Below, piece by piece: positions 26,991 to 49,152 of a stretch of DNA of 64,000 nucleotides. The stretch is taken from sequence record OR670491. One strand, given 5' to 3'. The position numbers were made by a program, and so were the translations under genes. This DNA is from Escherichia phage vB_EcoM_JNE01. Within the stretch, counting starts at the first letter, position 1; the number at the start of each line of letters is the position of its first letter. The notes under the pieces were generated by a model that saw nothing but the letters and a program-made list of their open reading frames with translations, made no database searches and was not told where the DNA came from.

Positions 26991-29900
26991 ACTAAATTTT
27001 AATAAACGACCTACATCCAATCCACTAATTGTCAAACTGTCTGTATAAACACTCAATTCAATTGGCAAATAGTTCTCACCATATTTCTTGAACTTATCAA
27101 TGTTTCCTAAGTTCATGCCAGTAAATGTATATGTCTCATCTAGTTTGAAATCATGTTCCGCACTGTACATCGCACCACGTAGTAAGTTATTTGCATTACG
27201 TACTTGGACTTTCTCGTAACCCAATGAAATAACATCATTCAGTGAAGCTGCTGCACCCGATAGAACATTATTGGTAACACTGTATGGGCTTACCGATGAA
27301 GGTTGTGAAACATAGGTCATATGTTCATTCTCAATCATCGTAATGCTTGTCACAGTACTACCAACAGCGGTAATATAAGCATTTGATACTAGTGGGTAGT
27401 TATACACCCAAACCCCGTCAGAATTACGTGTAGGTTCTAGTAAACCAGCATCGTATTCAAACACGTTAATCTCAACGCTATCAACCATTCTTGTTCTTAC
27501 TAGTTCACTTAGAACACCAGAACCAGTAATAGGTAGATTATAGCCGTTATCGATTGTAACCCCGTCCACAACGAAAATTTCATTTGACACTAACCATAGG
27601 TCAATATCACTTGAAGTTATTCCGTCATTATATGAACCGTTATCTAATGTCGTGTCATAAAATACTTCGTATTTCATTGCATCAATTGCATAGTTTCGGT
27701 TTTCTTCGTATAATTTAACTCCATTAACAACAAATTCAGGATCTGCGAATGTTCTAATACGAACTAGGTTCAGTGCTAGAGGCATTGCATGTTCACCAGC
27801 TTTGTTAGTAGTGATGTTATCAAACATCAGTACTGCACCAGTTGAATCTAGTAATTCAACAGTACCATTGGCTGTATTATTTCGTACAGTGAATAGTTTA
27901 GGTGTAGTTCCTGTTTTGATTTTAGATACACTCAAGATGGTTTCCCATGTATCGTTTTGGTATCTTACAAAATCCTCACCATCAGTGGTGAAAATCATAA
28001 CTTTATCCCCATTAGCTAATGAATTATCTACTAACTTCATTTGACTTTGAGTTTGCACTGATTTCACTTGATAGAAGTATTTTTCATCATACTTATCTGT
28101 TGTTGCACTAATATCGTTAGATACTTTTGCGTATGAAGGAATACTAATAATTGCTTGTCCATAGTTGTAAGGATTGATTAGAACCATACCTTCAACATGT
28201 AAGCGACTATTGTCACGTAGCTGAACTTGAGCAGCAGTATCAAAGCCATATCCATCAATCGTTACTCTGATTTGACCGATATCACGTTCCGCTGGGTTCA
28301 CATCACGAATATCAATGATATAAGGATCAACCTCATCGTCTTGTACTGACCATTTCATGGTAGCTGTTTGTGATTCTAGTGCTAGGTTATCGAAAGAGTT
28401 CATATCATTATAATATTTCGCACCTTCAATACCGTCTAGTATTTGTTTATAATCAGAATACATTGGATTGTTAACATCTTGCGGTAAATCATCCAAATTG
28501 ATTTCAGCTAAACTTACAGCCTGACCAGTTGTGATGTAGATATCTTCGATGAAATCGTCAATACTTTGATTACGTGGAATACTAACAAACGTATCATTTA
28601 CTTTAGCATATACATATTTTCTAGGAATCATAGTGAATGCATAGTTTTGTACAGAATTATTACTTAGTACTTCTTCGGCAATTTCATAATTATTGGAAGC
28701 ATCCTTGTTAAACAAGTTACGCATACCAGTTAATACATGAACTGCGTCGGTGTAATATCTTCTTACTTCAATTACAACTTCTTCACCATCTTCATCTTGA
28801 ATTGTTTGTTCTTCCATGAACTTATACATGTAAACGCCGTATTCAACTTCTAGCTCAATTCTAACTTCCTCGTCACTGAACGCAGGATTTGCAGTTTTAA
28901 TCAAATCAACATATTTCTTATACAATTCACTGGATACTTCATAATAACCTAAGTTATAATCAGTACTGCTTGCGAAACCAAACGGTAGACGAGTGCTTGG
29001 GTTGTCAGTGAAGGTCACTCCACTAAAACCACATCCAACTTCATCATGAATAACTTCATTACTAGCACCAGTGTACAGCTTCAATCGGTTAGAAAGAGTG
29101 TTGTACTGAACATAATGTTTAACATCGTCAAACACTTCGTTATTTGTCGCTTCTGCATAAATGCGGTGAAGATTTTGGGTAAATTCTTCAGTTAGTGCTA
29201 AGTTATCAGAATTTTCTTTATACCAATCGTTAATTGCTTTAGCAGCACCCATTGTAATATTCATACTTGGATATAGAATTTGCATTTGGTATGCAACTTG
29301 TAAATCTAAAGTTTCTGAATTATTTTCAGGGAAGGTATAAATGAATCTTTGTAACTCAAAATCACTGACTACATCTTTTTCGTTACTTTGATACTTGTTG
29401 TTAACTGCATTTAGTACATCTAGGCTTGCCAAATCTTCATTTGGTTTACACTGAATGTTGTCATAATGCATAATCACATCAATTTCTTGGAAACGTCTAT
29501 TTGGTGTTACAAAATCGCTTGGCAATGAACCAATTTGTTCCCATCTCTGAGTAACATCACTAAACTGTGCGTATTCATAGTCCCAAATATCTTTTTCAGT
29601 TTTAACCCAAGAACCATCAACAAGAATATAGCCATTTGGATCGAGGTCGTTGCATAATCCTTTGATAACATCATCATCTGATGTTTTCTGTTCAATCTGA
29701 GAACGAATCTTAGTTCTGTACGGTTTAACTTCTTCAAAGTACTCGACAATTTGATTAATCAAGTTATCGTTTGAATAGTTCTGTACAAGAGATTGCTCTA
29801 GACCAATAATATAAATGTAAGATGTTTTGAATACCCAGTCCACAACACCCTGTTCAACGTGAACATACTTAACCATATCAAATACTATTGTACTTTGATG

Positions 29901-32900: not shown

Positions 32901-35900
32901 TAGTGACCATACACCACCGCTATTCTGTGCAATTGATTGTACTGAACCAAAATCTGCACCAAATTTAGCATTTGCTGAACTTGGAGTACAAGAAATGTAT
33001 TCACCACTCACAAGAGTACTTTGACTCCATGTTACGAAATCTTTAGCAATAGTATTCCAGTCTTGTTGAGCACCAGAATCGTTTACATCTTCAAAAATCC
33101 AACCATGTTCTTTTAGATACTCACCATAACCACAAATGAAAGTATATACTTCCTGATAAGTGTTGAATACTTTACCATATTCAATTTCACTTTCATTTTT
33201 CCATTCATTGTAATGAGCAACATTACGGGTTCCAATTTTTAGTGATACTTTCTTGCCGTTCTTAACTGGTAATTTATATTTGAATTTAGCACCAACCAAA
33301 TCATAACCATCAATTTGGTATGCACTACCAGTCCATGTAATTTTCACTGCACTAATTACTTCGTCACGAATATTACTGGAACGAACTAGTCCGATAGTTT
33401 GGTTTTCTTGTGAAATCAGACCAAAAGATTTTGCTGTAAATGTTAGTTGGTCAGCTTTAGTGAAGCCACCAATTTTATGTCCCACGTTAACGTAAGAAGA
33501 ACGAACAACATCACCATATTTTGTAGTAATATTTTTATTTTGATAAGCCAAATAGTCACTAACAAACATTTGATAGCCAACGGTTCTGGTATTATTTTCA
33601 CCATGAACTACTGTAGCACTGTCAAAGTTAATTCGTTTACGGGTTTCACCATAAAGGAACTGTGGTTGACCAGTATATACAGAATTTAGACTGTTATTAC
33701 GGGTATCCCAGTAATAGTTTGCGAACTGTGCTGGTTTAGCTTTATACAATAGAAGCATTTGGTCGTAAGCGAACATAGCAGTGTTCATGTAAGTGAATTC
33801 CATGTCACCCATGTCACCATATGACCACGGTTCAGCACGATGATTCAATGAACCACTAACTAGACCTAGAACTTCAGGAGCGATGTACTCAATCTCACAA
33901 ATATCGATACCAGTGCTTGTCTTAGAGCCTGTTTTTGTAATTTTGAACGGTTGTACACCGAAACGTTTGTATTTGTCGTATTGACCTTTACGTGCACCAT
34001 ATAGGATTGTACCAGTACTGCTATCACCAATGGTTCCGTCAACTGACCATAGGCCACTTGGAACATAATCACCATTTTCGTTTAGTACTAGAGCTTCATA
34101 TACAGCAACTGTATCACTTTCACGTTCACCAACCTGTACATATGTTGGTTCATACTCTTGGTTCCACCATGATGGACGTTGAGAGAATCCTAGCATTTCC
34201 CACGGATGGGTTGCTGGACGATATGTACCGTACTGATCAGTGTAAATTGCACGCCATGAACCACGAGCAGGAATATCAGATACATGACCATCAACTACAT
34301 AATTGGTTCCAGTATAGTTCCATGTTTTCCAGTTACTTTGGACATATGCATTAGTACTGTTACTAATACCGTTGGTAGCAGTAAAGTTAATGTATCCACG
34401 CAATAGTAGAGTTTGTTTCTCTGCCATCGTATAATCAGTTGTCTGGAAATACGGGGTTGGGAATAAATCTTCACTACTTAGTACTGGTTGATAATCTACA
34501 TCTTTGAATACGTTATCAATACTATCAAAAATACGAGATTCCAATTCAAACACAACATCATCCATTTTATCAACACCGTTAATTGCACGATATGATTTGG
34601 AAATAATACCAGTGTGGCTGATATTATAGAAGCTTGATTTGCTACCTGGATTTAGGTATGTAGCTTTTTGTGGTGCATAAGCTTGTAGAATACCTAAGAA
34701 TTGTGGTGTTGGTGGAACAAATGTACGAATAAAACCAGAAGTGCTTGCTACGTTGTCATAATAGAATGGGAATGAACTATCACGTCCCATGTTAATAGCA
34801 CTAAAAATTGCATCTACAATATTAGAAGCACTATTAGCAACAAAGCCACTTGGATCTTCGTCATACATACGAATCATTTGTGTATTGAATTTGTTAATGA
34901 AGCGGAAGTATTCTGCTTGCATAAACATGATAGCTTCAAACAAATCGATATCTTCGTTTGCAGTGTGAGCCATCAATGGAAGCATTGAAGCTTCGTTTTG
35001 AATAATGTGAGTACCGACACCATTATCAACCAACCCAGCAGCTAGACGTTCTTCGTAATCGTTGAAGTCATCAGATGAACCACTTGTAATATTCTTTTGA
35101 ATAATATCCTTGAAATGTAGGGTGTACATTCCTTGGTTGATATAAATGATATTACCGTTGTATGGGTTATTTTGTAAGTTGATTGGAATTTCATATGCAC
35201 CAAGATTCTTATCAGGAGTAATAGTACTGCTATAAGTTCTGATTTGAATAACTGAATCTTCATCTAGTGCAACAGTACTATCGATTGTAATACTTTGAAC
35301 TTGATTTTTGGACACGGTTTTGCTGAAGCTGTTGGTAACTACACCATCAACTGTTAGCTCAATAATGTCATCAGAATTATCAAGTACTTTCTGTGCCAAT
35401 TCAAATGTATGATTGTATTTTACACTTTGAACACCGTCGCCAGTGATAACGTGCCAATCAAGATATGTTTCTTTTTCTGCTTTGTAATATTGGTAAGTGC
35501 GATCCACTTCGATTACATAAGCATACATTCCATCAACTGGTGAACGGAAACTTTCTAGATCGTAAACAGTACTGAATACACGATACATGTCAGTACGGGT
35601 AACTTCTAGAGTTTGTTTAACGAACTGTTTGGAATATTCAGCAGAACGAACCCAGTCAGTTTTTAGGTGCATAGAATTGTCTTCACCGATGACGTTAAAA
35701 TAATACAAACCGTCAATCTCAACTTCTTCACCTAAATGATCATATGTATAACGTTCGGACTGTAGAAAGTTCTCATATGTATAATAGTTGTAATCACCTA
35801 ATTCGATGTTATAACCATATACACCATCAGTTGGATAGTTGTAGTTGATTTTAAATCCAAATAGAGAAGAACCTTTGAAAGTACTGGATGGATAAACGGC

Positions 35901-36998
35901 ACTATCGTTTAGTTTATTACCATTGCGATCATATAATTGGAATTGTGGGAAAAAGTTAACTGTAGGTTTGGCTTGTGCTTGAACCCAATGTGCACCATCC
36001 CAATACATTGAACTATTACCATAGGTATTACCTTTAGTAATTAGAACCACGTCACCTTTAATTGGTTCACCACTTGGACGGTCTTCAGTTTCTTCTTCAG
36101 GATCTAATGCTAGACCATATACGCGTGTACCATCTTGTAATTTTTTAATGTATACTTTATAAATTCGGTTATTCTCACCACTGTTACCAATACTGGTGAA
36201 GAGAATGCGTTGACCATCTTGTGGGATAATCCCGTCAATACGAATACCGGAGTTCACATCTTTTTGAACCATATCTTCTGGTTTGATGGTATCAGAGTAC
36301 AAATCAACTGTACCACGGAATTTAGTACCGTAGTTTAGAAGTTCGATATCTTTATTGAACTCGATAATAGGTGCTTTAGCACGAACGAAACGCTCATCCT
36401 GCATTAGATCTTGGGTTAGTACTGTACCATCCCCTAATGTTTCACCTAGAGTGTACCAGAAGTTTTGTAGGGACCATGTGTTGCCGTTAGTAGCATTACG
36501 TTCCATTACAACATAGTCTGGAGTTTGAATATTGTATTCGTTTTGTGTATCCCAAAGATATGAACTGTAGTTGTTCATTTTGTTTGGGTTAATAGCAGGT
36601 GTCCATGCGTAAAACTTACCAGCAAATAGGCGACTTTCATTATCAGTTAGTGCACCGTAATGATTCATGTAGCCAACGAGGTCATCATAAAATTGAATTG
36701 AACGAATACTGCGGTCATCATTTCTTGAGACGTAAGCAGTGGATAACTGATACAGTTGACGTGCAACTGTTGATTCAGCTAGGAAGATGTTACCTTCAGC
36801 GGCGGGAGAACCCATATCACCAATATAGCCGTCAACCAATTCGTTTTCAGCCGGATTAAACCATTGTTGAATGACATCATCACTTACCTTCTGAATGTCT
36901 TCTAGACCTTGCATCCATTCAGGTAATCTTTTGATGAAAAGTTTTTTCTGTACTGCTTCAGCCGTTTGTGTAGGTTGAAACTTAAAATTATTAGTCAT
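26988..36998 (-). CDS. giant virion structural protein (3336 aa), baseplate/fiber-associated (possibly gp7-position)
   Basis: Uninterrupted ORF of ~10 kb; start placed at second ATG (MTNNFKF) which has TGGAG RBS; located directly downstream of gp6-like gene in baseplate operon; Tyr/Asn/Asp-rich beta-type composition. Confidence 0.7.
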   Translation of the reverse strand: MTNNFKFQPTQTAEAVQKKLFIKRLPEWMQGLEDIQKVSDDVIQQWFNPAENELVDGYIGDMGSPAAEGNIFLAESTVARQLYQLSTAYVSRNDDRSIRSIQFYDDLVGYMNHYGALTDNESRLFAGKFYAWTPAINPNKMNNYSSYLWDTQNEYNIQTPDYVVMERNATNGNTWSLQNFWYTLGETLGDGTVLTQDLMQDERFVRAKAPIIEFNKDIELLNYGTKFRGTVDLYSDTIKPEDMVQKDVNSGIRIDGIIPQDGQRILFTSIGNSGENNRIYKVYIKKLQDGTRVYGLALDPEEETEDRPSGEPIKGDVVLITKGNTYGNSSMYWDGAHWVQAQAKPTVNFFPQFQLYDRNGNKLNDSAVYPSSTFKGSSLFGFKINYNYPTDGVYGYNIELGDYNYYTYENFLQSERYTYDHLGEEVEIDGLYYFNVIGEDNSMHLKTDWVRSAEYSKQFVKQTLEVTRTDMYRVFSTVYDLESFRSPVDGMYAYVIEVDRTYQYYKAEKETYLDWHVITGDGVQSVKYNHTFELAQKVLDNSDDIIELTVDGVVTNSFSKTVSKNQVQSITIDSTVALDEDSVIQIRTYSSTITPDKNLGAYEIPINLQNNPYNGNIIYINQGMYTLHFKDIIQKNITSGSSDDFNDYEERLAAGLVDNGVGTHIIQNEASMLPLMAHTANEDIDLFEAIMFMQAEYFRFINKFNTQMIRMYDEDPSGFVANSASNIVDAIFSAINMGRDSSFPFYYDNVASTSGFIRTFVPPTPQFLGILQAYAPQKATYLNPGSKSSFYNISHTGIISKSYRAINGVDKMDDVVFELESRIFDSIDNVFKDVDYQPVLSSEDLFPTPYFQTTDYTMAEKQTLLLRGYINFTATNGISNSTNAYVQSNWKTWNYTGTNYVVDGHVSDIPARGSWRAIYTDQYGTYRPATHPWEMLGFSQRPSWWNQEYEPTYVQVGERESDTVAVYEALVLNENGDYVPSGLWSVDGTIGDSSTGTILYGARKGQYDKYKRFGVQPFKITKTGSKTSTGIDICEIEYIAPEVLGLVSGSLNHRAEPWSYGDMGDMEFTYMNTAMFAYDQMLLLYKAKPAQFANYYWDTRNNSLNSVYTGQPQFLYGETRKRINFDSATVVHGENNTRTVGYQMFVSDYLAYQNKNITTKYGDVVRSSYVNVGHKIGGFTKADQLTFTAKSFGLISQENQTIGLVRSSNIRDEVISAVKITWTGSAYQIDGYDLVGAKFKYKLPVKNGKKVSLKIGTRNVAHYNEWKNESEIEYGKVFNTYQEVYTFICGYGEYLKEHGWIFEDVNDSGAQQDWNTIAKDFVTWSQSTLVSGEYISCTPSSANAKFGADFGSVQSIAQNSGGVWSLLDDQNQGIRQYEIETSRIGNVFTVRTTDDSDKRMALIRLSLCSYEHAVIFDDQTIFGDYIYQPTFGSVQELIKMYGYITGSWTGRLQAPGFIILEAGTLPSFEKLVTDFELYYNSETPVSDIQLQELSNHLIGYQTRDYLQRMIGSDANRVDFYKGFIHDKGSNQVLEKVLRVSKSYDTEEYKALQEWAFKIGTYGNVDGKKNLQFKLINDQFKQQPQLVSFDIHATSNGNGNNIVYFGEQGADPRWVTRPNGKFSFPMRSGRSENIQLPDIGPVSLDEISYITKEFSTAYDDRIQYMNKTGEIPESVWMYKDVDGLWDIFDLVDTEVKMLSITPIENNDPYAEQFCKVTLSDNIPLVDGEYYYFVDETNFMPDSLTVESQYYTAGTDPKVMVVPFDTSIDITFTDVDTQPKLYRYKSRFSTDADRQAYMDKKYSYKAPESTLFDRPTTYDDRTNVTALYLNVFDPINGVIPGVAMQNVNYTTPVDPAQYNSNGELLQAWGADKVGQVWWNTSTAYYLDYTRPIFDADGVVDVEATNEYKRYNWGKLLPHSKIDVLEWVCSPVEPYNWETYCKDMAKKNKNNTMYLPSGTALEDNYSAFLEYDSATDSYVTKYYFWVRDTIYVPPLHTRTKSCTDIARIIEEPAQLNIPWFAPINESSFILSNMQFEVNDDTSVLTISYYMDNTEVVKHDQYQLCKEGDSYNFNSAIWDSMWNSLRGQETTESGSVIDLLYPAVDNGLGSNKTWFQDVIEARRTFVDSANDFYRSQNMTTNTVVMAEVFNVKTTEVNPNEVAFRVLSYNSELVIAPESDKFKENDAVLVSTSGSLPTPLTTSSVYFVHIDANGYIHLMNSPSSAGSIVTITLENRGEGQHKMIKHADFEESLGTSLDMTQYWNLADWYDEGYSSTTSYTQEDSLDDANAKNYQIGDVIRVTDSDGIWTLYIKAESRESIYWKAIGRENSTIELNDMLYADYTVRTESGSLSNREINVRKALALLKNSFDLHQSTIVFDMVKYVHVEQGVVDWVFKTSYIYIIGLEQSLVQNYSNDNLINQIVEYFEEVKPYRTKIRSQIEQKTSDDDVIKGLCNDLDPNGYILVDGSWVKTEKDIWDYEYAQFSDVTQRWEQIGSLPSDFVTPNRRFQEIDVIMHYDNIQCKPNEDLASLDVLNAVNNKYQSNEKDVVSDFELQRFIYTFPENNSETLDLQVAYQMQILYPSMNITMGAAKAINDWYKENSDNLALTEEFTQNLHRIYAEATNNEVFDDVKHYVQYNTLSNRLKLYTGASNEVIHDEVGCGFSGVTFTDNPSTRLPFGFASSTDYNLGYYEVSSELYKKYVDLIKTANPAFSDEEVRIELEVEYGVYMYKFMEEQTIQDEDGEEVVIEVRRYYTDAVHVLTGMRNLFNKDASNNYEIAEEVLSNNSVQNYAFTMIPRKYVYAKVNDTFVSIPRNQSIDDFIEDIYITTGQAVSLAEINLDDLPQDVNNPMYSDYKQILDGIEGAKYYNDMNSFDNLALESQTATMKWSVQDDEVDPYIIDIRDVNPAERDIGQIRVTIDGYGFDTAAQVQLRDNSRLHVEGMVLINPYNYGQAIISIPSYAKVSNDISATTDKYDEKYFYQVKSVQTQSQMKLVDNSLANGDKVMIFTTDGEDFVRYQNDTWETILSVSKIKTGTTPKLFTVRNNTANGTVELLDSTGAVLMFDNITTNKAGEHAMPLALNLVRIRTFADPEFVVNGVKLYEENRNYAIDAMKYEVFYDTTLDNGSYNDGITSSDIDLWLVSNEIFVVDGVTIDNGYNLPITGSGVLSELVRTRMVDSVEINVFEYDAGLLEPTRNSDGVWVYNYPLVSNAYITAVGSTVTSITMIENEHMTYVSQPSSVSPYSVTNNVLSGAAASLNDVISLGYEKVQVRNANNLLRGAMYSAEHDFKLDETYTFTGMNLGNIDKFKKYGENYLPIELSVYTDSLTISGLDVGRLLKFS

Positions 36999-37032
36999 TG
37001 TTGGACTCCATATAATTCGTTCATTCATTTGA

Positions 37033-40545: not shown

Positions 40546-41310
40546 TTAATCCTTTAATATTATGTTAAAATTATCATAAAAGTACCTTTTTAGTACTGAG
40601 ATATGATCCTCATTGTATTTTATACGAAGCAAGTTAATATCATGTTCAGTACAGTACGCGTTTTTAATTTTATCATTGTGTTGAGTTTGTTTTAGTGATT
40701 CATCTCCACCCCAATGTTCTGAACATTGAAAATGCTGTTCACCATCATATTCAATACACAAATTCAAATCTTCAATATAAAAATCAAATGGTAAAGTGAA
40801 TACGTTTCGACAATCAGAAAAACGCTTTTCTTTTACATACTTCATAAAAGATAACATTTTTTCTATATCTGTTACAGCTTTTGATTGAGTTGATTCCATC
40901 ATACACTGCTCACAACCATGCCTACTAGCCAAATGATTATCAGGTCTTTGTAAAAATGACCCATGTATGGGGCATATTATGGATATATGTGTTTTGTTGT
41001 TAATATACTCCGCAGTATTGTAATCAAATTTGTTTTTAAACTTCAAATTAGCTTTTTCACGAAAATTTATAAAGTTTTTTGGACTTTTTTGACGGTTTGC
41101 ATTATATTCTTTTGAACATTTCATGCAACCTTTACCACTAGTATGATCGTTTGGTCTTTGAAGAAAAAAACCATGCTTTTCACACCCAATCCATACCTTT
41201 GTTTTTGCATTATGGTATTTAACCATACTATAATCATATCTAATTCCATGAACTCGTATTGCATTGGTCACAAATTTGTCTTTCGTTGATCTTGTGGTTG
41301 CATATTTCAT
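40546..41310 (-). CDS. free-standing homing endonuclease-like protein (two CxxC/HG repeat modules plus Vsr-like PD-(D/E)xK nuclease domain)
   Basis: Two tandem ~60-aa modules with HGxxYDYS...KVWIGCEKHGFFLQRPNDHTSGKGCMKC / ...ISIICPIHGSFLQRPDNHLASRHGCEQC; C-terminal ...FDFYIEDLNLCIEYDGEQH resembling Vsr/Hef-type endonucleases; GGAG RBS. Confidence 0.6.
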   Translation of the reverse strand: MKYATTRSTKDKFVTNAIRVHGIRYDYSMVKYHNAKTKVWIGCEKHGFFLQRPNDHTSGKGCMKCSKEYNANRQKSPKNFINFREKANLKFKNKFDYNTAEYINNKTHISIICPIHGSFLQRPDNHLASRHGCEQCMMESTQSKAVTDIEKMLSFMKYVKEKRFSDCRNVFTLPFDFYIEDLNLCIEYDGEQHFQCSEHWGGDESLKQTQHNDKIKNAYCTEHDINLLRIKYNEDHISVLKRYFYDNFNIILKD

Positions 41311-41334: not shown

Positions 41335-41345
41335 AATATTTATCC
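41335..41345 (-). promoter_or_regulatory. putative late promoter (GATAAATA) for the homing endonuclease gene
   Basis: Minus strand GGATAAATATTTC about 27 nt upstream of ATG. Confidence 0.4.
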
Positions 41346-41379: not shown

Positions 41380-41775
41380 TTATACAGAAGATACTGAATA
41401 AGTAGCCATTCTATTATTACTTCTAGCATCAAACACAATAGTTAGTTCTTCCAATGTTTCCAGAACCACATAACCAAGTAAAATGCTCATCTGATATCCA
41501 TACTCAATTCTGGAAATTTGAAGTTCTTTTAATTCAAGACGTGGATCTAATCCAATTATTCTTCGGGCATCAGCTTCAAGAAGGTTGATTGTATTGTAAC
41601 CATCCAGTTCGAATAGTAAATCCCATGCAATAAACCCGTAGTCAGCATCAAATGCCCTTTCGCCTTTCTTTGTATTAAAATGATTAATAAGGTCTTGACG
41701 TACCAATTCACTATCGTATAATGTTTGTGTTTTCCCTACTACTGGAGTAGAGAATCCTTTAAAAACTATAGCCAT
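41380..41775 (-). CDS. 25: gp25-like baseplate wedge protein (GPW/gp25 family, 131 aa)
   Basis: Size and motif KKGERAFDADYG matching the gp25 xGSRPFDPEFG core; AAGGAA RBS. Confidence 0.6.
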   Translation of the reverse strand: MAIVFKGFSTPVVGKTQTLYDSELVRQDLINHFNTKKGERAFDADYGFIAWDLLFELDGYNTINLLEADARRIIGLDPRLELKELQISRIEYGYQMSILLGYVVLETLEELTIVFDARSNNRMATYSVSSV

Positions 41776-41788
41776 AGTGATTCCTTAA

Positions 41789-42277
41789 TTAGACGGACTC
41801 GACAATACGTGCCATTTGTTCCGCTCTGGATGTGGTTTGCTTATACCATGTACTATCACGCATTTCTTTACCAGCAGTTTTATAATCACCACGACCGAGA
41901 GCAGCCATAGCTTTTTTGAAGTTTAAAACTTTTGATTTGCCCATTTGGAAAACCATCAACCACAATACACGTTGTACTTTAACTGGTGCGGTCATACCGA
42001 ATTGGTCATAAATTGATTTAGCGTCATTGTACGCGGATTGAGCATCTTTAATTAATAGAGCATCAGCTTCTGCTTCGGTTAGACCAGATTTGAAATTTTC
42101 ACCAGGACGAACCAAGTGACCATAACCAATTGTATCTAAACCGAGGCTGTCTTTATACACCCAAAATTTGTCATTCTTAAAATAACCCAATTTCTTTTGA
42201 TAAGCAATTGTACCTTCAAATTCTTTAACTTCTTTGAAAAATTGCTCGTCTGTGTTTTTAATTTCCCATTTACTCAT
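41789..42277 (-). CDS. T4-type lysozyme (glycoside hydrolase family 24), stand-alone copy
   Basis: LDTIGYGHL, MVFQMG and WYKQT..RA motifs as in T4 lysozyme; highly similar to the C-terminal domain of the adjacent gp5-like protein. Confidence 0.85.
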   Translation of the reverse strand: MSKWEIKNTDEQFFKEVKEFEGTIAYQKKLGYFKNDKFWVYKDSLGLDTIGYGHLVRPGENFKSGLTEAEADALLIKDAQSAYNDAKSIYDQFGMTAPVKVQRVLWLMVFQMGKSKVLNFKKAMAALGRGDYKTAGKEMRDSTWYKQTTSRAEQMARIVESV

Positions 42278-42293
42278 AAAGATTTCCTCTTAA

Positions 42294-42303
42294 TTATTTA
42301 TAG
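42294..42303 (-). promoter_or_regulatory. late promoter, perfect TATAAATA
   Basis: Minus strand CTTCTATAAATAATTAAGAGGAAATCTT-ATG; TATAAATA about 18 nt upstream of the lysozyme start with AGAGGA RBS. Confidence 0.6.
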
Positions 42304-42315
42304 AAGTAAAAATAT

Positions 42316-44979
42316 TTATTGGCAAGCCTCAATTCGACGTGCCATTAATTCTGCACGACGTGTGGTTTGTCTGTACCAAGCAGAGTTACGGATTTGTGCA
42401 GCAGCTTGCTTGTAATCACCTTTAGCTAGACAACTAAGCATAGTTTTAAATTTAAGAACACCACCTTTACCCATCTGGAATACCATTTGACATAGAACTT
42501 GCTGTGCCATATATGGCGTTTTCATGTTATAAGATGCATAAATTGATTTAGCATCATTAATCGCTTTAGTACTGTCCCTTACAAGCATATCGTTTGCTTC
42601 TTGTTCAGTAATGCCGCCGCTGAAATTTTCACCGCTGATAATCAAGTGTCCATAACCTATAGTTGGGAATCCACGACTATCTATATATCTCCAGAATTTA
42701 CCATTACGGAAATATCCTTTCGCTGCTTGATATTGTTGAGTACCTTCATATTCTTTCAATTCAGATGTAAATTGAGCATCACCAGGTACAACTTTCCAAT
42801 CAATTGCCGTTTTATCAACGGTTCCAACATTATATGATTCTTGCTGTGATGCAGCAGGAGCAGAAGTAGTTCGTTGTGTTCTTCTACGTCTAGGAACATG
42901 ACGAGAACCACGTTGTGAATAACCCGTACCGATAGTTTTGATTTTAGTTGATACAACCAATTCATCACTATCAACTGAAGGTTGAACTACTGCTTTTGGT
43001 GCGGCTTGGTTTGTTGCCTGACCTGCAATTAAGGTTTTATTTGCTGCATCAGAACCAGTACCAGTTTGTGAAGCATAGAATAACCCTGGGTCAACAGAAC
43101 CACTGAAACCGTACACACTTGATGATGTAACACGAATCTCAAACATAATGACACCATTTGCTGTACCGATTTTTTGTCCTTTTTGTACAACATCTTTATT
43201 CATCAAATCAGATTTGATATTAAAGAATACAGATTTGTATCCAGACTTATGCTGAATCAACAGTCCACCATTGGTTGCTGCGACAACACCGCCATCAGGG
43301 GCAACAATATCACCTCTGCATTGGATTTCCCAACCACTACTATCAACTTTACCACCACCTGCGACTGGTACGTTTTTACCCCAGTAACCATTCTGACGAA
43401 TAGTACCGCTACATGGCATAAACATATGCAAACCTTCATATGTAATCGTATATCCGGTCATACCAGGATCAGAAGTCATTAAATCTTCGGATTGAACTGA
43501 TTCTGTTTCTTGTGTATAGTTAATAAATTGTACTGCTTCTGTATCTTGTGCTTCTGCTAGTTCAGGAGCTACGTCATTAGCTGGTTGTGGCTGTACTGGT
43601 GCAGTAGTTGATGATCTACCACCACCTTGATATGGAGGCTCAACAGTACTTCCATGATTTTCTGCATCAACCCAGTTAGAAATGTTATGAATATGGTCAT
43701 TTAATCCAGCAGAAGGTGTTTTAAAATCAGGAGCAGAGAACATTGCAGTACCAGTATTACCTGCACTATCAACAGTTAAGTTCTGACCACCACCACTGAT
43801 GTTTACAGATGAACCACCTATTACGTTTGCACTGCTTGAACCTTTAATAGATGCAGATGAGCCAGCAGTGATATCAGTACTGCTACCACTTTGTAAACGT
43901 AGAGAAGCGGCTGTTACTAGACGTAAATCTGCACCAGAGTTCAATACAATTTGACCACCTACTTTTGCATCCAAATTACCAATTAAATCTAATTTAGTTT
44001 TACCACCAATTCGGGCATTTAGGTCTTGTCCACTCTCTATATTATAAGAACGTCCTGCAACCATGTTAATATCTTGACCAGCACGAATGTTAATGTTCTT
44101 ATCACAGTGCATGTCAATATCACCGTCACCTGAGAATCTAATACGTGCAGTACCGTCACGGTTAATCAATAGAACGTCTCCAGTGGCTTCAGAAAGCAAC
44201 AATTGAGCACCACTGCGTGTCTTTATGACTACACCTTCATTCTTACGAGAACCAACTCTGGTGTCGTTTACGGGGTTATTAAATTGTGTATCCTGGTAAC
44301 CATCTGGATCATCATCCCAAGATGGAGCAGTTAATTCTTCTTCAGTGTATCCATCATCAATAATAAAACTATTCCCGCGTGGTGATGACATACCATAGAC
44401 AGTACTGGTAGTTTGTCGAGTACTGCTGCGGTTTGCTACGCCTGCTTCTTCATCATATAGCAAGTTTTGCTTTTTAAGACCTGCGATGATAGGCACGTTT
44501 GCATATTTTTCTTGTGTAGTTGATGAAAGTGTGTTACGGTCATAGTCAGTTACTGGTAATGGCATATCAGTACCACCATAGTTACTTACTTCGGTAGCCA
44601 TACCAGGAACCATAGTGTTCATTCGTTGATCATAAACACACCCAATCCAGTATGCTTGGAATGTACGAGCCTGTGCAAATATAACAACCACAGTACAACC
44701 AACATCTGGAGGTACAGCCCAAAAACCATACCCTTTAGGGAACTGACCATAAGCTTCCGCACTTGGAATGCCTGGTGTTTTCCCTGCGAATGGAGACATG
44801 TAAGATGCTTCAATCCATGACTCCTTCGAGTTCTTGTCACTTTGTGAACCCTGAATCCATACTTTCAGTTTTCCTGATTTGGTAGGGTCACGGTTATCCA
44901 TTACTGTTGCCAGTTGTGGATAAGAAGGGTCGAAACGACCCAACTGTTGTTGTGCATACTTCTTACTAGTATCTGCCAT
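42316..44979 (-). CDS. 5: gp5-like baseplate hub / cell-puncturing protein with beta-helix repeats, degenerate M23-like domain and C-terminal lysozyme domain (887 aa)
   Basis: Central repeats NINIRAGQDINMVAGRSYNIESGQDLNARIGGKTKLDL... typical of gp5/VgrG beta-helix; segment GDIVAPDGGVVAA...LIQHKSGYKSVF...GQKIGTANG resembles LytM/M23 fold without HxH; C-terminal TIGYGHL...MVFQMG...WYRQT lysozyme domain; AAGGAAA RBS. Confidence 0.75.
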   Translation of the reverse strand: MADTSKKYAQQQLGRFDPSYPQLATVMDNRDPTKSGKLKVWIQGSQSDKNSKESWIEASYMSPFAGKTPGIPSAEAYGQFPKGYGFWAVPPDVGCTVVVIFAQARTFQAYWIGCVYDQRMNTMVPGMATEVSNYGGTDMPLPVTDYDRNTLSSTTQEKYANVPIIAGLKKQNLLYDEEAGVANRSSTRQTTSTVYGMSSPRGNSFIIDDGYTEEELTAPSWDDDPDGYQDTQFNNPVNDTRVGSRKNEGVVIKTRSGAQLLLSEATGDVLLINRDGTARIRFSGDGDIDMHCDKNINIRAGQDINMVAGRSYNIESGQDLNARIGGKTKLDLIGNLDAKVGGQIVLNSGADLRLVTAASLRLQSGSSTDITAGSSASIKGSSSANVIGGSSVNISGGGQNLTVDSAGNTGTAMFSAPDFKTPSAGLNDHIHNISNWVDAENHGSTVEPPYQGGGRSSTTAPVQPQPANDVAPELAEAQDTEAVQFINYTQETESVQSEDLMTSDPGMTGYTITYEGLHMFMPCSGTIRQNGYWGKNVPVAGGGKVDSSGWEIQCRGDIVAPDGGVVAATNGGLLIQHKSGYKSVFFNIKSDLMNKDVVQKGQKIGTANGVIMFEIRVTSSSVYGFSGSVDPGLFYASQTGTGSDAANKTLIAGQATNQAAPKAVVQPSVDSDELVVSTKIKTIGTGYSQRGSRHVPRRRRTQRTTSAPAASQQESYNVGTVDKTAIDWKVVPGDAQFTSELKEYEGTQQYQAAKGYFRNGKFWRYIDSRGFPTIGYGHLIISGENFSGGITEQEANDMLVRDSTKAINDAKSIYASYNMKTPYMAQQVLCQMVFQMGKGGVLKFKTMLSCLAKGDYKQAAAQIRNSAWYRQTTRRAELMARRIEACQ

Positions 44980-44990: not shown

Positions 44991-47129
44991 TTATTCGATT
45001 ATACTATCATGTCGCTTCAATGCACGAATAACGATAGCGGCTTGTATTTGTTGTGTGAAAGAGCCACCTGCACCAAAATCATGAACAATCTTATTAATTC
45101 GATAGATAGTTTGGTTAAATGTAGTTGGAGTTGTGATATCCAATACACCAGTATTATCATTGATAGATACAACTGGTTGCAATTTCAATAAAAGATAAGC
45201 TTCGGATGTTATATAGTTTGCAACGTGGTAATCTTCTGGATTTATTTCCATATCTTCACCATTGATAACTTGTTCAAGATATTGGAGATAAGAATAGTCA
45301 CTCCAGCCAATCCAGAATGGGTCACCAACAACTTTCATATCTAATTTACACAAGAATGGTCTATTATAATAGTTGTCACGTATTTTACGTCTATCCATTT
45401 CATATGTGCTACTGTTATCGTTAAGAGATGCAGATAGTGTTGTTTCATTATTCGTTGCTTCGGTTGGCATAGTGAATATTTCACCATTTCTGTGACCAAT
45501 ACCATCAGTACCGGAGTCACTTGAATCATATGTAGTTACATAGTCTTCAATATAATCAGGTAATACGTTAACTTGATAGTTATTAAGTCTGTCTTGTTCA
45601 TCAGATGCACCAACTTGCATGATATTCTTAGCTGCGTTCTCAACTTTATCCAATAATTCCTGCTGTGCTTGTGTAATCATACCACCAACACTCTTAGTTG
45701 CACGAATATCCTTTGTTGCAGCCCATGCTTCGGGTATACTATTGTACTGAACACCTTGAATATTCAATTCTTGTGATGCGTGAGTGCCCTGATGGTTCGC
45801 TACATCTTGGATTGGGCCTGGGTTGCGAGTAGTTGCAACAAAAAATTGCTGATCGAACTTCAAGTCCAAATCCAATACTTCTGTGTTTAAACCAGAGAAT
45901 TGATAATTATAAGTTTTCATGTTTATTTTTGGTTTATTGTCATTTGGGTCAACATATTTCTCTGCGTTCTCAAAAAAGTACTCAAATGTGAAGTTTTCTG
46001 GTTGCAAATCGTTCTCATGAACGACATCACCAATTTTAAATCTCACAATATAGAAAACGACCTTATAAACTGATGTGTTACGATAATTATCGAACCCTAC
46101 ATATTGTTTAACCGGAATAATGTTAACAAATTGACGTACACTGGTACTTTCATCAGCCCTTACTGTGCATGTATCAATAACATCATCGATAATACGAGAT
46201 ATTGGTGTACTTGGGTTCCATGAGAAGTTTTTAGAACCCTGACTTCCACTCTTTGTCGCACCAGTTTCTGCCATTTGCTTTGAATCATAGTTAATTATCA
46301 AATCTTGTAGGTCTGGTGCGACTTTAAACTCAAAGAACTTACCTTCAGATAGTTCACTGAATTTATAACGCAAGTAACCGTATTGCTGATCAGCCATTTG
46401 ATTCAATTTGTCTTCAATATCAAAACAAAAATCACCAAAGTTCTCTGCTACACAGGTGAATGGTTCTTTTAAAGTCCATTCCACGTTATCTACAAGGGCC
46501 GCACGGTTGTGTACTAACGATAATGTGTACAGCATAGTACTTCCACTCTCAGATGCACTTGCTGCAACACTGTTAATCTTAACAGACCATTTACGGGTAG
46601 TGTCTGGAATTACTTCTGGACGACCATCAGCATTAAAACCTATAAATTTCAATTCTAATATCAAAGGTAAGTCCATAAATTTATGGTAACGTAATTTATT
46701 ACTTAAAGAAATTAGTTCATCATACAAACTCATACTATTGTTTTCAGATATCTTCATTACTGCGGTGTTGAAGCAGTAGTTAGTAGTCATGCCAGGTGTT
46801 GATGGTCCTGCTTGCGTCATCTGAACACTTGTGATATTATACTTACCAGTTACACCACTTTCCGATATAACATGACGTTGAACTTCAGCATTTGGCAAGA
46901 GCCAGAAGTTTTTGAAGTCATCTTTATCAAGTGCAAACAAAGAAAAGTGCCATGTTGGGTTGTCATACTTAAGAAGCTTGTTCTCATAAGGTATAACGAA
47001 CTCCGACAAGTCCAAATCTTCATACACTTGGTCAACACTAGTGTTTTGTTTAGGAAGTGATTGCAAATTACTTACTTGTGCTTTATAATTGTTCTTAAGG
47101 TTTGATGCCATACCTTTAATGTCTGCCAT
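44991..47129 (-). CDS. putative baseplate hub protein (gp27-position), 712 aa
   Basis: Immediately upstream of and translationally coupled to gp5-like gene; GGAG RBS; assignment by position, only weak motif resemblance. Confidence 0.4.
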   Translation of the reverse strand: MADIKGMASNLKNNYKAQVSNLQSLPKQNTSVDQVYEDLDLSEFVIPYENKLLKYDNPTWHFSLFALDKDDFKNFWLLPNAEVQRHVISESGVTGKYNITSVQMTQAGPSTPGMTTNYCFNTAVMKISENNSMSLYDELISLSNKLRYHKFMDLPLILELKFIGFNADGRPEVIPDTTRKWSVKINSVAASASESGSTMLYTLSLVHNRAALVDNVEWTLKEPFTCVAENFGDFCFDIEDKLNQMADQQYGYLRYKFSELSEGKFFEFKVAPDLQDLIINYDSKQMAETGATKSGSQGSKNFSWNPSTPISRIIDDVIDTCTVRADESTSVRQFVNIIPVKQYVGFDNYRNTSVYKVVFYIVRFKIGDVVHENDLQPENFTFEYFFENAEKYVDPNDNKPKINMKTYNYQFSGLNTEVLDLDLKFDQQFFVATTRNPGPIQDVANHQGTHASQELNIQGVQYNSIPEAWAATKDIRATKSVGGMITQAQQELLDKVENAAKNIMQVGASDEQDRLNNYQVNVLPDYIEDYVTTYDSSDSGTDGIGHRNGEIFTMPTEATNNETTLSASLNDNSSTYEMDRRKIRDNYYNRPFLCKLDMKVVGDPFWIGWSDYSYLQYLEQVINGEDMEINPEDYHVANYITSEAYLLLKLQPVVSINDNTGVLDITTPTTFNQTIYRINKIVHDFGAGGSFTQQIQAAIVIRALKRHDSIIE

Positions 47130-47140: not shown

Positions 47141-47455
47141 TTAACCTACGTTACGTGTACCATTTAAGAATGTTTGTACACGCTGACTTGATGGGATGCG
47201 AATTGATACTCCACTTTTGAAGTTGTAGATTGGGTCAGAACCCAAAATGTTGGGATTCAAAAGGGCAAAAACATAGTACAGGCGTTCGTTACCATACATT
47301 TCATATGCTAAACGCCAAGGTTGAAATTCATACTTAGGGGGAATTTCATAGATATCATCGGTATCTGCTGGAACAATATCTCGTGGTAGATTGTACCCTA
47401 GATACCAGGTTTGTTTCACCTTAGCATAAGGTGAATATTGACTATATGTTGACAT
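47141..47455 (-). CDS. gp53-like baseplate wedge protein (LysM-like), 104 aa
   Basis: WRLAYEMYGNERLYYVFALLNPN resembles T4 gp53 LANAIYGNPQLYWVLLMCNDN; start overlaps stop of upstream gene. Confidence 0.45.
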   Translation of the reverse strand: MSTYSQYSPYAKVKQTWYLGYNLPRDIVPADTDDIYEIPPKYEFQPWRLAYEMYGNERLYYVFALLNPNILGSDPIYNFKSGVSIRIPSSQRVQTFLNGTRNVG

Positions 47456-48186
47456 TAAATAAATCCTCCATTGCGTAATAGTTCACCACGTTTAAATGAA
47501 TTCAAGTTGAATTTCTTCGTCATGAAATCAGACGTGGGTTGTTCTTCCAACTGAATAACAACTGAAATCTTTTGAGGAACCCATACTTCATCTTGTGGAT
47601 TCATATAGCCAGTACTTCTAAGTTGGTTGAAGAACTCACGACTATCTTTATCAGCTAAGTTGAAAGTACTGTTACTACTATCTAGTGGTACTTGAATATA
47701 CGATACATCGTTTGGGTATGTAAAGTTATAAGATTTCATAATTACAGGAATATCATTATATGTATAACGACCATAACCACTTAAAAGTAAAATTGGTGGT
47801 GGAGCACCAGGTATCGCCAGTTCAGGGTTGTTGGCGGCAGCAGCCTGACGACCAAAATCCATCAACGATACTGAACGGATGAAGTGCATACATGCTAGTG
47901 TATAAAGTGCTTCAGCCGCAGTATTTGCATAGAATTCACCTTGGATAGTGAAGACTGTGTTTGTTGTGTTTTTGTAGTTGTTATAGTTACTGTTTGTGTG
48001 TATAGGCGACTGTGTTTCATATTGCACAGATCTTTGTTCGGAAATTGTAGGTGTTACAGTCCAGACAAGACCATTAGTTGGACGCAGAAACGACAGTAAT
48101 GTAGGTTCAGCACTATTGCCAAAATCACCATATACGTAATTAGCACCTGCGGTTTTAGGTCTTAATCGAATTCTACGATCAATCAT
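47455..48186 (-). CDS. hypothetical baseplate/tail protein (243 aa), first gene of the late baseplate operon
   Basis: ORF with GGAGAATCAAA RBS and perfect late promoter upstream. Confidence 0.5.
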   Translation of the reverse strand: MIDRRIRLRPKTAGANYVYGDFGNSAEPTLLSFLRPTNGLVWTVTPTISEQRSVQYETQSPIHTNSNYNNYKNTTNTVFTIQGEFYANTAAEALYTLACMHFIRSVSLMDFGRQAAAANNPELAIPGAPPPILLLSGYGRYTYNDIPVIMKSYNFTYPNDVSYIQVPLDSSNSTFNLADKDSREFFNQLRSTGYMNPQDEVWVPQKISVVIQLEEQPTSDFMTKKFNLNSFKRGELLRNGGFI

Positions 48187-48217: not shown

Positions 48218-48227
48218 GTATTTATAC
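48218..48227 (-). promoter_or_regulatory. late promoter, perfect TATAAATA, for baseplate operon
   Basis: Minus strand CCACGTATAAATACATC about 33 nt upstream of ATG 48186. Confidence 0.6.
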
Positions 48228-48258: not shown

Positions 48259-48312
48259 ACATTGATGGTACAAGGATTGTGCCAATTGGTTTCAAAACAT
48301 GGAGAGTTAATA

Positions 48313-49152
48313 ATGTCAATTAAACCCAAGCGTAAAAAGTATCTCAACAATGCTGATTTGCTTAGAGAAATTCAGAAAAGTAAAATGTCATATTGCTGGT
48401 TGTTAGACAAAAGCTACAGTATGTACGATTACATTGTTTTTGATGAATCTGAAATTACAGCAGAAATGTTGGATAAAGCTAAAGCTGCTCGTATCAAACG
48501 TCTTAACAATGAGATGCTTGATGCAGTACGTGAAAAAGAGGGTATGAGTGCTAAGAAAGCGAAGGAATACGCAGAAGCAAACAATTTAGTACTCACTGAT
48601 GTAGCCATTGATGAAGTTGTTATTCGTGTCATCACTGATGAACATATCCAACCGGATACACGAGTGAATTTTGAACCTTTTAAACATTACATTGTTGATG
48701 AAGAAGGTATCCTGTATGAAGTTGCTCGCTCTCACTGGAAAGGTGATTTAGAAGAAGGTGAGTTCTGCTTGACACATGGCAAAATCACAAATGAACTAGG
48801 TAAGATGTTCATCAAACTAGCAGAAGAAATCTCTCACAAATCAAACTATCGTAACTATACGTATCTTGATGAAATGATGGGTGATGCTAGAATACAATTA
48901 GTTAAAAACGCACTACTCTTTAAAGAGAGTATTCTTTATAAGAAAGATAAACCAGCAGTACAGTTGAATCCTTTCTCATATTATACTTCGTTTGTCAACA
49001 ACAGTTTCAGGTCAATCCTGAACAGTGAGAAGAATGTACGTAACATCCGTGATGATCTTCTTGAGATGCATGGTTTTACACCTTCCCATACACGACAAAT
49101 TGAAATTGAAATGAATATGATTGAAAGGAAGAACGAAGATGGCTCTATTTGA
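48313..49152 (+). CDS. 55: gp55-like late-transcription sigma factor
   Basis: MSIKPKRKKYLNNADLLREIQ parallels T4 gp55 N-terminus (KPKYNYVNNKELLQAII); further matches ...KLAEEISHKSNYRNYT... and NPFSYYTSFVNNSF; start moved to ATG with GGAGAG RBS. Confidence 0.8.
   Translation: MSIKPKRKKYLNNADLLREIQKSKMSYCWLLDKSYSMYDYIVFDESEITAEMLDKAKAARIKRLNNEMLDAVREKEGMSAKKAKEYAEANNLVLTDVAIDEVVIRVITDEHIQPDTRVNFEPFKHYIVDEEGILYEVARSHWKGDLEEGEFCLTHGKITNELGKMFIKLAEEISHKSNYRNYTYLDEMMGDARIQLVKNALLFKESILYKKDKPAVQLNPFSYYTSFVNNSFRSILNSEKNVRNIRDDLLEMHGFTPSHTRQIEIEMNMIERKNEDGSI

Follow-up and report, generated by a model that had tools for sequence, protein, structure and literature searches.

A jumbo coliphage baseplate hub resembling a gpV/VgrG-type spike with a C-terminal lysozyme arm, and its free lysozyme paralogue

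Introduction

The window analysed here, a 64,000-nucleotide (nt) stretch of the Escherichia phage vB_EcoM_JNE01 genome (sequence record OR670491), contains two neighbouring minus-strand open reading frames (ORFs) of 887 and 162 amino acids (aa), separated by 38 base pairs (bp), of which the first encodes a baseplate hub protein that ends in a T4-type (GH24) lysozyme and the second a stand-alone lysozyme of the same kind. This locus raises the question of how such a hub is built, how the two lysozymes are related and what each of them might do. A preliminary description, made from the sequence alone, had located both ORFs where we find them and had read the hub as a T4 gp5 in reverse, with a degenerate peptidase-like segment before its terminal lysozyme, and the gene pair as the outcome of a local domain duplication and capture. 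We find that the hub domains follow the order OB fold, beta-helix, LytM/M23-fold domain and C-terminal T4-type lysozyme. Our best explanation, to which we assign a probability of roughly 0.65, is that the protein is a RaK2-type trimeric spike with a lysozyme-bearing cargo arm, accompanied by an old, free duplicate of that lysozyme.

The window is 98.2% identical at the DNA level to Escherichia phage Turkey5 and ~81% identical to 121Q, PBECO4, phAPEC6, G17 and other Asteriusvirus jumbo coliphages, by which measure the phage is an Asteriusvirus-like jumbo coliphage (myophage) of the RaK2/121Q type. The gene pair is conserved throughout the RaK2-like clade, with RaK2 ORF078/ORF073, CBB_240/CBB_239, 121Q gp587/gp586 and phAPEC6 gp241/gp242 as direct orthologues of the hub and the small lysozyme, respectively (hub identity is 51–87% among RaK2-like phages and 42% for Vibrio phage 2.275.O; small lysozyme identity is 52–90%). 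The hub matches PHROG 13211 from end to end, and its orthologues phAPEC6 gp241 and CBB_240 have been detected in virions by mass spectrometry (MS). Records of relatives label the pair 'baseplate hub (and tail lysozyme)' and 'lysozyme' or 'endolysin' (in Turkey5, 'baseplate hub structural protein' and 'endolysin').

The unusual arrangement has already been published for sister phages. The RaK2 paper (2013), which described an 886-aa hub with a beta-helix in the middle and a lysozyme at the C terminus, called this domain composition 'very unusual' and recorded three related lysozymes; the CBB paper (2017) described the same three-gene set (hub, lysozyme and gp25-like gene), contrasted its order with that of T4 gp5, assigned an N-terminal gp5 OB fold and a C-terminal lysozyme, reported a weak central M23 match, and listed only the hub and gp25-like proteins of the set as confirmed structural proteins. 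Both papers treated the M23 region as a possible peptidase, and neither dealt with the loss of its metal site, an HxH apex or the history of the duplication; a literature search found no structural study of this hub. What is new here is the demonstration that a LytM fold is present in degenerate form, together with the mid-chain HxH, the history of the duplication and the statistics on promoter motifs, increments of some value for research on contractile injection systems and phage lysins.

Domain architecture of the hub

The best Protein Data Bank (PDB) matches of the hub's N-terminal half are VgrG proteins. The OB-fold family Phage_base_V was matched in all ten hub orthologues, and VgrG OB folds in the PDB match aa 19–116 of the window protein. 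Further along the chain, Pfam DUF2345 (the VgrG beta-helix) falls at aa 278–330 with 30.0 bits, against a cut-off of 30.7, and was found in 10 of 10 orthologues at an expectation value (E) of ≤0.05; a family profile of the helix region retrieved VgrG1 from the PDB (E = 1 × 10−6) together with other VgrG and gp5 helices, with matches covering aa 286–431 for VgrG1 and aa 283–389 for a T4-like gp5 helix. On the strength of the DUF2345, VgrG1 and gp5 matches, the mid-protein helix that had been put at about aa 290–380 was rightly placed, if drawn too narrowly, and a span of ~aa 246–420 fits better; the helix assignment is made from sequence, and its trimeric state is a prediction. The connector that separates the OB fold from the helix (Table 1) is a dense run of invariant residues in a 10-genome alignment, for which no Pfam or PDB match was found over aa 117–245 and the monomer model is of low confidence. 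We take it to occupy the position in which T4 gp5 carries its lysozyme domain.

Right after the helix comes the motif H429-I-H431 (codons 43687–43695). Both histidines are invariant in 8 diverse hub homologues, and in a 10-phage alignment H431 is invariant and H429 nearly so (in the Vibrio phage the motif is shifted by two residues); the context reads 'DHIHN' in the window and 'HIHYH' in Mimasvirus, and P2 gpV ends in '...VLHTHKHPGD...'. According to the P2 gpV paper, an HxH that follows the helix is the hallmark of the Fe-binding Apex domain and its only conserved feature, and spikes without the motif, T4 gp5 among them, rely on a PAAR tip protein, which in T4 is the separate protein gp5.4. 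The hub thus resembles P2 gpV, the phi92 central spike and Mu gp45 in its OB fold, its beta-helix and an HxH directly following the helix, and differs from spikes of the P2 gpV type in that these end ~12 residues after the HxH, whereas the hub continues for another 456; an iron ion in the hub is predicted from the motif. A PDB alignment to VgrG1 (4uhv) that runs across the HxH was discarded as evidence for an apex, as it matches the His-tag of that construct.

Because the HxH apex motif lies in mid-chain, we read the protein as a P2 gpV/VgrG-type spike with C-terminal cargo and not as a shuffled T4 gp5. The first ~445 residues look like a complete needle of the gpV/VgrG type, and the remaining ~440 (linker, LytM-like domain, linker and lysozyme) look like a C-terminal cargo arm as in 'evolved' VgrGs. 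In T4 gp5 the order is OB fold, lysozyme and helix. The hub shares the OB fold and beta-helix of the T4 gp5 spike, but its own order (OB fold, helix, HxH, LytM-like domain, lysozyme) is not the T4 architecture against which it was tested, and T4 has no LytM domain; what stands of the 'reverse of T4 gp5' is that the domain order differs, and a gpV/VgrG-type spike with cargo is the more apt comparison. 'Evolved' VgrGs of type VI secretion systems, for example Vibrio cholerae VgrG-3, carry a C-terminal peptidoglycan-degrading domain. They resemble the hub in combining a gp5-like OB fold and a DUF2345 helix with a subsequent C-terminal enzyme for the target periplasm, and differ in having a gp27-like N-terminal half, which the hub lacks, while the hub is a phage virion protein with a dead LytM domain in its cargo.

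Several points weigh against reading the protein in this way. An hhalign comparison of the spike profile with P2 gpV found no profile similarity (probability 0.2%), the apex assignment is based on a three-residue motif, and large domains attached at the tip look ill-suited to piercing. The full-length monomer AlphaFold model is poor (predicted local distance difference test (pLDDT) score, 46), and nothing was concluded from it about the helix, the apex or contacts between domains. Where the cargo arm sits in the baseplate, and how it is placed with respect to the needle, is the structural question that an apex-bearing spike with tethered cargo raises.

In the mechanism that we propose, the hub would form the trimeric central spike of the baseplate, with its OB fold docked on the tube or hub, followed by an intertwined beta-helix and then by an HxH of the kind that cages an iron ion at a spike apex. 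From there the chain would continue as a cargo arm consisting of a flexible linker, the non-catalytic LytM-fold domain, a second linker and an intact GH24 lysozyme. Sheath contraction would drive the spike through the outer membrane, and the three tethered lysozyme copies would reach the peptidoglycan and open the wall locally for the tube, with the dead LytM domain binding peptidoglycan or regulating the adjacent lysozyme. The 162-aa gene, with its own start codon and late-promoter motifs, would yield a soluble muramidase late in infection, which may help to degrade the wall at lysis and would parallel the T4 gp5/T4 e pair.

It is also conceivable, if doubtful in our view, that the C-terminal arm (LytM-like domain plus lysozyme) is cut off or released by proteolysis at tail maturation or ejection, such that the mature needle ends at the HxH apex and the enzyme domains are held non-covalently or freed. 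A further 456 residues behind an apex motif make for an awkward topology, each linker is long and variable with predicted disorder, and linker 2, for which no family match was found, contains a conserved basic stretch in its otherwise variable sequence, just before the lysozyme domain (GYSQRGSRHVPRRRR, including 'RGSRHVPRRRR'; aa 686–702, about 42874–42924, minus strand), which could be a processing site, a nucleic-acid or lipopolysaccharide contact, or a docking element. Precedents for cleavage exist: T4 gp5 is processed into gp5* and gp5C by a cut between lysozyme and helix, and lactococcal Tal proteins with M23 domains cleave themselves. No cleavage motif was identified in the hub, however, and the phAPEC6 and CBB virion tables give the hub by predicted mass only, without peptide positions. 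Cleavage would in any case be compatible with a spike that carries a lysozyme arm, rather than exclusive of it.

A degenerate LytM domain

Conservation of the segment between the two linkers extends to 72 phage genomes, which apart from that of one Vibrio jumbo phage all belong to RaK2-like jumbo phages, and a HMMER search of 1.84 billion representative proteins returned 11 matches to it, 8 of them in hub-sized proteins (872–984 aa). Pfam Peptidase_M23 falls at aa 557–607 of the window protein with 19.7 bits, below the cut-off of 28.7 (E = 1 × 10−3), and matches 8 of the 10 orthologues (best E = 1.3 × 10−5). Searched against the PDB, one family profile (A2) retrieved LasA (E = 2 × 10−4), and a second (A5) retrieved DipM (7 × 10−8), SpoIIQ (1 × 10−7) and LasA (2 × 10−6), with all of its top 24 matches belonging to M23/LytM proteins; the segment alone gave only a non-significant tape-measure match by phmmer against the PDB and no match in a word-indexed protein search. 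An AlphaFold model of the domain (pLDDT 80, predicted TM-score 0.75) was then compared by Foldseek, in which the top 49 PDB structures were all LytM/M23 (TM-scores of up to 0.61–0.67), headed by DipM, a peptidoglycan peptidase, EnvC, Csd2 and the LytM domain of PrgK. Taken over sequence and fold, the best matches are the non-catalytic LytM regulators DipM, SpoIIQ, EnvC, Csd2 and PrgK. A barrel-sandwich or lipoyl-type fold, for which one orthologue's weak RnfC_N match and IIA-Glc at Foldseek rank 50 had made a candidate, was rejected, the 49 better-ranked structures all being LytM/M23.

At the positions at which such peptidases bind zinc or act in catalysis, the window protein carries other residues. 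The HxH of zoocin A ('PHLHFE') aligns with 'GVIMFE' in the window (V610-I-M612), the catalytic histidine of LasA and zoocin A aligns with N587, and the HxxxD position reads S547...E551, as judged from the pattern and from the DipM alignment. In none of ~15 homologues, the most distant included, is any zinc or catalytic position conserved as His or Asp (the first His is replaced by S, N or R, the Asp by E, I or T, the catalytic His by N, D or G, and the HxH by V..M, V..E or L..F), and the metal and catalytic positions are lost in all 7 hub-sized database proteins that were examined from the 8 found. A LytM fold together with a metal site lost in every homologue leads us to regard the domain as a degenerate LytM domain and not a peptidase, and the alignments indicate that it has been so since before the family radiated; the annotation 'M23 peptidase' should be better read as 'non-catalytic LytM domain'. 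The earlier suggestion of a LytM/M23 fold without its HxH is thereby substantiated by Pfam, PDB profiles and structural comparison. That the domain is still an active peptidase, working through a non-canonical catalytic site, seems to us highly improbable: an invariant histidine (H577) and conserved acidic residues (E614 and D630) do remain, but H577 corresponds to the structural histidine in the 'IDHGNGY' strand, a residue that the inactive DipM and SpoIIQ have retained as well, all four canonical zinc or catalytic positions are non-His, non-Asp and variable among homologues, and the closest matches are domains known to be inactive.

By analogy with other degenerate LytM domains, the dead domain is most likely a peptidoglycan-binding or regulatory partner of the fused lysozyme. 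PrgK, part of the type IV secretion system of pCF10 and built of LytM, muramidase and CHAP domains in that order, resembles the hub in that an envelope-crossing machine carries a degenerate LytM domain, without HxxxD and HxH, beside a muramidase that is active in PrgK and predicted to be so in the hub; the LytM and CHAP domains of PrgK restrain its muramidase, which its authors liken to phage tail lysozymes. PrgK differs in that it belongs to a Gram-positive plasmid, is membrane-anchored and has the extra CHAP domain, and regulation in the phage hub is suggested by analogy only. Phage tail proteins with an active M23 domain include phi29 gp13 (lysozyme plus M23), lactococcal Tal2009 and T5 Pb2. 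M23 domains were also found in BFVD, in tape-measure and 'Peptidase M23' virion proteins. Like the hub, such proteins bear a module with the M23 fold, whether on the tail tip, the hub or the tape measure, for penetration of the wall; they keep the zinc site and are active or presumed so, whereas the window domain is catalytically dead.

A different role would be that of a delivered activator of host periplasmic amidases or lytic transglycosylases, similar to EnvC, NlpD or DipM, with which the phage would combine host autolysins with its own lysozyme at the site being penetrated. The domain's best matches by fold and profile (DipM and EnvC) are exactly activator-type degenerate LytM domains, its tether is the portion of the virion that reaches the periplasm, and the surface motifs 'MP..G', 'GW.I', 'FE.R' and 'DPG.F' are invariant in all hub homologues despite the lost catalysis, which argues for a selected non-catalytic function. 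We nevertheless consider this role very unlikely, as an interaction with host amidases is conjectural, identity to EnvC and DipM is <21%, just three copies would be delivered per virion, and a cis role with the fused lysozyme (for which PrgK is a precedent), peptidoglycan binding or a structural role explains the data more simply. The wider idea that the domain is a delivered regulator and not a spacer, whether by PrgK-like silencing of the lysozyme in cis until it contacts peptidoglycan or by mimicry of EnvC or DipM, is tentative and one that we would not expect to hold. If it were true, a delivered LytM regulator and a mid-chain, iron-caged apex would define a cargo-carrying phage spike analogous to the evolved VgrGs, of a kind that has not been structurally described for any phage.

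Two related lysozymes

The T4-type lysozyme that had been recognized at the extreme C terminus of the hub scores well above the Pfam cut-off (Table 1), with a Phage_lysozyme match at aa 765–882 and PDB matches to the T4 gp5 lysozyme domain (E = 1 × 10−12) and to T4 lysozyme (T4L; about 1 × 10−8). The 162-aa lysozyme aligns with hub aa 728–886 without gaps and with 85 identities in 159 positions (53%; BLASTP, E = 2 × 10−58), and its sequence has no signal peptide and no transmembrane segment. Catalytic residues were assessed in an alignment of 25 GH24 sequences that included T4L (reference residues Glu11, Asp20 and Thr26). The catalytic Glu and Asp are invariant across this alignment and the Thr is present in both window proteins (E21, D43 and T49 in the free copy; E745, D767 and T773 in the hub), which share an insertion between Glu and Asp that T4L lacks; the lysozyme domain of the hub is predicted to be catalytically intact.

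In a neighbour-joining tree of 25 GH24 domains, all stand-alone copies form one clade (72% bootstrap support), the hub C-terminal domains, with the exception of the Vibrio one, form another (72%), and the two clades are sisters (80%). Branches outside both comprise the Vibrio hub domain, an endolysin from Erwinia phage KEY that is encoded next to a holin and is the nearest outside relative of the free copy (44% identity), and 121Q gp532 (33–35%). The near-parallel lysozymes of the preliminary description are thus each other's closest paralogues. Of the outcomes named in that description as contradicting it (a beta-helix placed elsewhere, no M23 relationship, or lysozymes with closer homologues than each other), none was observed. 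Identity between the two copies inside one genome ranges from 40 to 64%, the free and fused copies have diverged (52%) about as much as orthologues have between genera (59%), and the duplication is common to Asteriusvirus, Alcyoneusvirus, Mimasvirus and their relatives. The simplest history that these relationships suggest is one old tandem duplication of the 3′ end of the hub gene, in an ancestor of the enterobacterial and Xanthomonas RaK2-like phages, from which the free lysozyme would derive. The hub 3′ end was probably copied out, rather than a lysozyme captured by the hub, because in Vibrio phage 2.275.O, of all hub-bearing relatives the most distant, only the fused domain is present, with no free gene between its hub and gp25-like genes. 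Against this history it must be said that tree support is moderate and that the polarity is based on a single outgroup genome. Of the 'local duplication and capture' first envisaged, the duplication is real, but it is old and clade-wide and probably did not proceed by capture.

The outcome resembles the T4 gp5/T4 e pair, in that a spike-borne GH24 lysozyme and a free GH24 paralogue are encoded in one genome; it differs in that T4 e is not adjacent to gene 5, whereas the window paralogues are in tandem. Relatives have three lysozyme places per genome. The third is that of 121Q gp532, whose equivalent lies elsewhere in the genome, outside the window, in which local tblastn found no third copy; gp532 is a 308-aa protein with an N-terminal transmembrane segment and a LysM region (14192–15118 of the 121Q locus), encoded ~60 kb from the hub and ~9 kb from the Rz-like spanin gp511 (5339–5713 of that locus).

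Some hub-fused copies vary at or near catalytic positions. PHA46 and Hallingskeid have Asp as the T26 equivalent ('DIGYGH', together with an additional loop); XaC1 has Ser there and no longer has the Glu–Asp insertion. The stand-alone copies, unlike these, are uniform. Such changes may reflect relaxed or altered function in the fused copies concerned.

Expression and role of the stand-alone lysozyme

A perfect TATAAATA, the T4 late-promoter consensus, does precede the lysozyme gene, as had been reported, together with an ATAAATA motif over the hub stop codon (Table 1). Across the window, TATAAATA occurs at 4 sites against 7 expected, that is, it is under-represented and not enriched, which fits avoidance inside genes; the promoter argument therefore comes from the position of the sites and not from their count, as all 4 lie 17–48 nt upstream of same-strand starts (P about 1 × 10−7), the other three standing before the major head protein gene, before the gene that follows the prohead protease and before the first gene of the baseplate operon. 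From the last of these sites the hub is presumably transcribed. The ATAAATA motif is a genuine upstream element, with 13 of 15 window sites falling 0–60 nt (observed, 6–48 nt) upstream of same-strand starts (P = 3 × 10−21). In the CBB paper ATAAATA was proposed as a late promoter in CBB and GAP32, and the statistics given here support it as a late promoter core in this phage.

These elements recur in relatives. Over the hub stop, CAATAAATA or GCATAAATA is conserved in 121Q, CBB, GAP32, PHA46, XbC2 and Hallingskeid; the perfect 8-mer TATAAATA before the lysozyme gene is also present in 121Q, so that these two phages carry an extra perfect motif when set against their RaK2-like relatives; and in RaK2 a separate TATAAATA lies about 37 nt upstream of the relocated lysozyme gene. 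From these motifs, an internal late promoter of the free lysozyme is plausible, and late transcription appears alike in T4 and the window, each having a promoter of the TATAAATA type together with a gp55-like sigma factor.

The free copy is predicted to be a soluble muramidase and is apparently not packaged; its job is most likely wall degradation at lysis, as endolysin or co-endolysin. LysUE1 of phage UE-S1 (2025), an 88%-identical orthologue of the 162-aa protein, was muralytic in vitro after purification and lysed cells from outside when ethylenediaminetetraacetic acid (EDTA) was present. Virion MS of phAPEC6 found the 95.9-kDa hub, with neither the small lysozyme nor the gp25-like protein on its list, and the CBB virion proteins likewise include the hub and not the small lysozyme.

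A number of points tell against a role in lysis. Absence from the MS lists is weak evidence, since phAPEC6 MS also missed the gp25-like protein; no holin or spanin lies beside the 162-aa gene, whose neighbours are the hub and gp25-like genes; in nearly all relatives the gene sits at this place inside the baseplate operon; and the CBB paper predicted a different protein as endolysin, the transmembrane–LysM–lysozyme protein CBB_187, which is of the 121Q gp532 type. The putative endolysin role of the free copy is contested by this gp532-type paralogue and by the position in the baseplate operon. The 162-aa lysozyme might accordingly be associated with the baseplate or its assembly, as a low-copy virion muramidase or a partner of the hub, and not be a lysis enzyme, with the transmembrane–LysM–GH24 paralogue elsewhere in the genome as the true endolysin. 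In 8 of the 9 relatives with a free copy, its gene is flanked by those for the hub and the gp25-like protein, and in RaK2 it has stayed within this module; no holin or spanin is near it, whereas gp532, with its transmembrane segment, is encoded ~9 kb from an Rz-like spanin; the CBB authors grouped CBB_238–240 as baseplate-associated; and low-copy proteins, of which the gp25-like protein of phAPEC6 is an example, can escape MS.

We take this possibility seriously but think it unlikely. Although the hub was detected in the phAPEC6 and CBB virion proteomes, the small lysozyme was not; its gene has late-promoter motifs of its own, including a perfect TATAAATA as before the major head protein gene, which suggests a need for more product than a three-copy spike would take up; the protein is compact and single-domain, without a docking extension; its purified orthologue lyses cells externally with EDTA; and its nearest outside homologue is a holin-linked endolysin. 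A contribution to lysis thus stays our preferred reading of the free copy. The clade keeps three diverged GH24 enzymes, which may divide entry, lysis or other tasks among them.

Gene neighbourhood and other observations

The pair is embedded in a minus-strand baseplate operon (Table 1), in which Pfam and PHROG matches identify gp53-like and large structural protein genes upstream and a gp25-like gene, an HNH endonuclease gene and a gp6-like wedge gene downstream. RaK2-like phages share this synteny (gp53-like, structural protein, hub, lysozyme, gp25-like and gp6-like genes). RaK2 itself differs (locus 5872–7365): between the hub and the stand-alone lysozyme it has an insertion of four small hypothetical ORFs, of which two run on the opposite strand. 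The gene for the late sigma factor is divergent from the operon, and the intergenic region between them holds the TATAAATA of the operon; a Pfam search of this gp55-like candidate gave no match.

Table 1. Positions of the hub and lysozyme genes, hub domains, promoter motifs and neighbouring genes in the window.
Feature	Position	Strand	Basis
Late sigma factor gene, gp55-like	48262–49152	+	PHROG 12791, E = 1 × 10−150; PHROG 234, E = 1 × 10−16
TATAAATA upstream of first baseplate-operon gene	48219–48226	−	
First gene of baseplate operon	47455–48186	−	
Baseplate hub/central spike gene, 887 aa	42316–44979	−	ORF; 98% DNA identity to Turkey5
Hub, OB-fold domain, aa 23–116	44632–44913	−	Pfam PF04717 Phage_base_V, 29.6 bits (cut-off 23.8)
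Hub, connector between OB fold and beta-helix, aa 117–245, highly conserved	44245–44631	−	Invariant residues in 10-genome alignment
Hub, predicted triple-stranded beta-helix region, about aa 246–420	43720–44244	−	Pfam DUF2345, PDB matches
Hub, apex-like segment with HxH motif	43645–43719	−	Motif only
Hub, linker 1, aa 446–519, P/Q/A/E-rich, poorly conserved	43423–43644	−	Gap-rich variable columns; pLDDT <50
Hub, degenerate LytM/M23-fold domain, aa ~520–640	43060–43422	−	Pfam, PDB profiles, AlphaFold and Foldseek
Hub, linker 2, aa 641–725	42805–43059	−	Alignment; pLDDT <50
Hub, C-terminal GH24 (T4-type) lysozyme domain, aa 726–887	42319–42804	−	Pfam PF00959, 43.0 bits (cut-off 22.3)
ATAAATA late-promoter-like motif over hub stop codon, 35 nt before lysozyme ATG	42313–42319	−	
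Perfect TATAAATA (T4 late-promoter consensus), 17 nt before lysozyme ATG	42295–42302	−	
AGAGGA ribosome-binding site of lysozyme gene	42285–42290	−	
Stand-alone GH24 lysozyme, 162 aa	41789–42277	−	Pfam PF00959, 38.1 bits (cut-off 22.3)
gp25-like baseplate wedge gene, directly downstream of lysozyme gene	41380–41775	−	Pfam GPW_gp25, 31.1 bits; PHROG 43

The locus of Vibrio phage 2.275.O (3253–6589), the most distant hub-bearing phage and one without a stand-alone lysozyme, also lacks the 'virion structural protein' of ~710–795 aa that is otherwise encoded between the gp53-like gene and the hub; its window counterpart lies at 44991–47129.

The HNH/homing endonuclease gene between the gp25-like and gp6-like genes (40546–41310, minus strand; PHROG 559, E = 1 × 10−56) is preceded by an ATAAATA at 41337–41343. 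121Q has an endonuclease at the corresponding site (gp584, described for 121Q as 'associated with group I intron'), and none is present in Turkey5, 98% identical to the window, or in phAPEC6, CBB, GAP32, PHA46 and XbC2, a presence/absence polymorphism of the kind that mobile endonucleases typically show. The gp6-like gene is directly followed downstream by a giant ORF of 3346 aa (26988–37028, minus strand), with orthologues in 121Q (gp582) and in phAPEC6, where the 382-kDa gp245 was found in virions.

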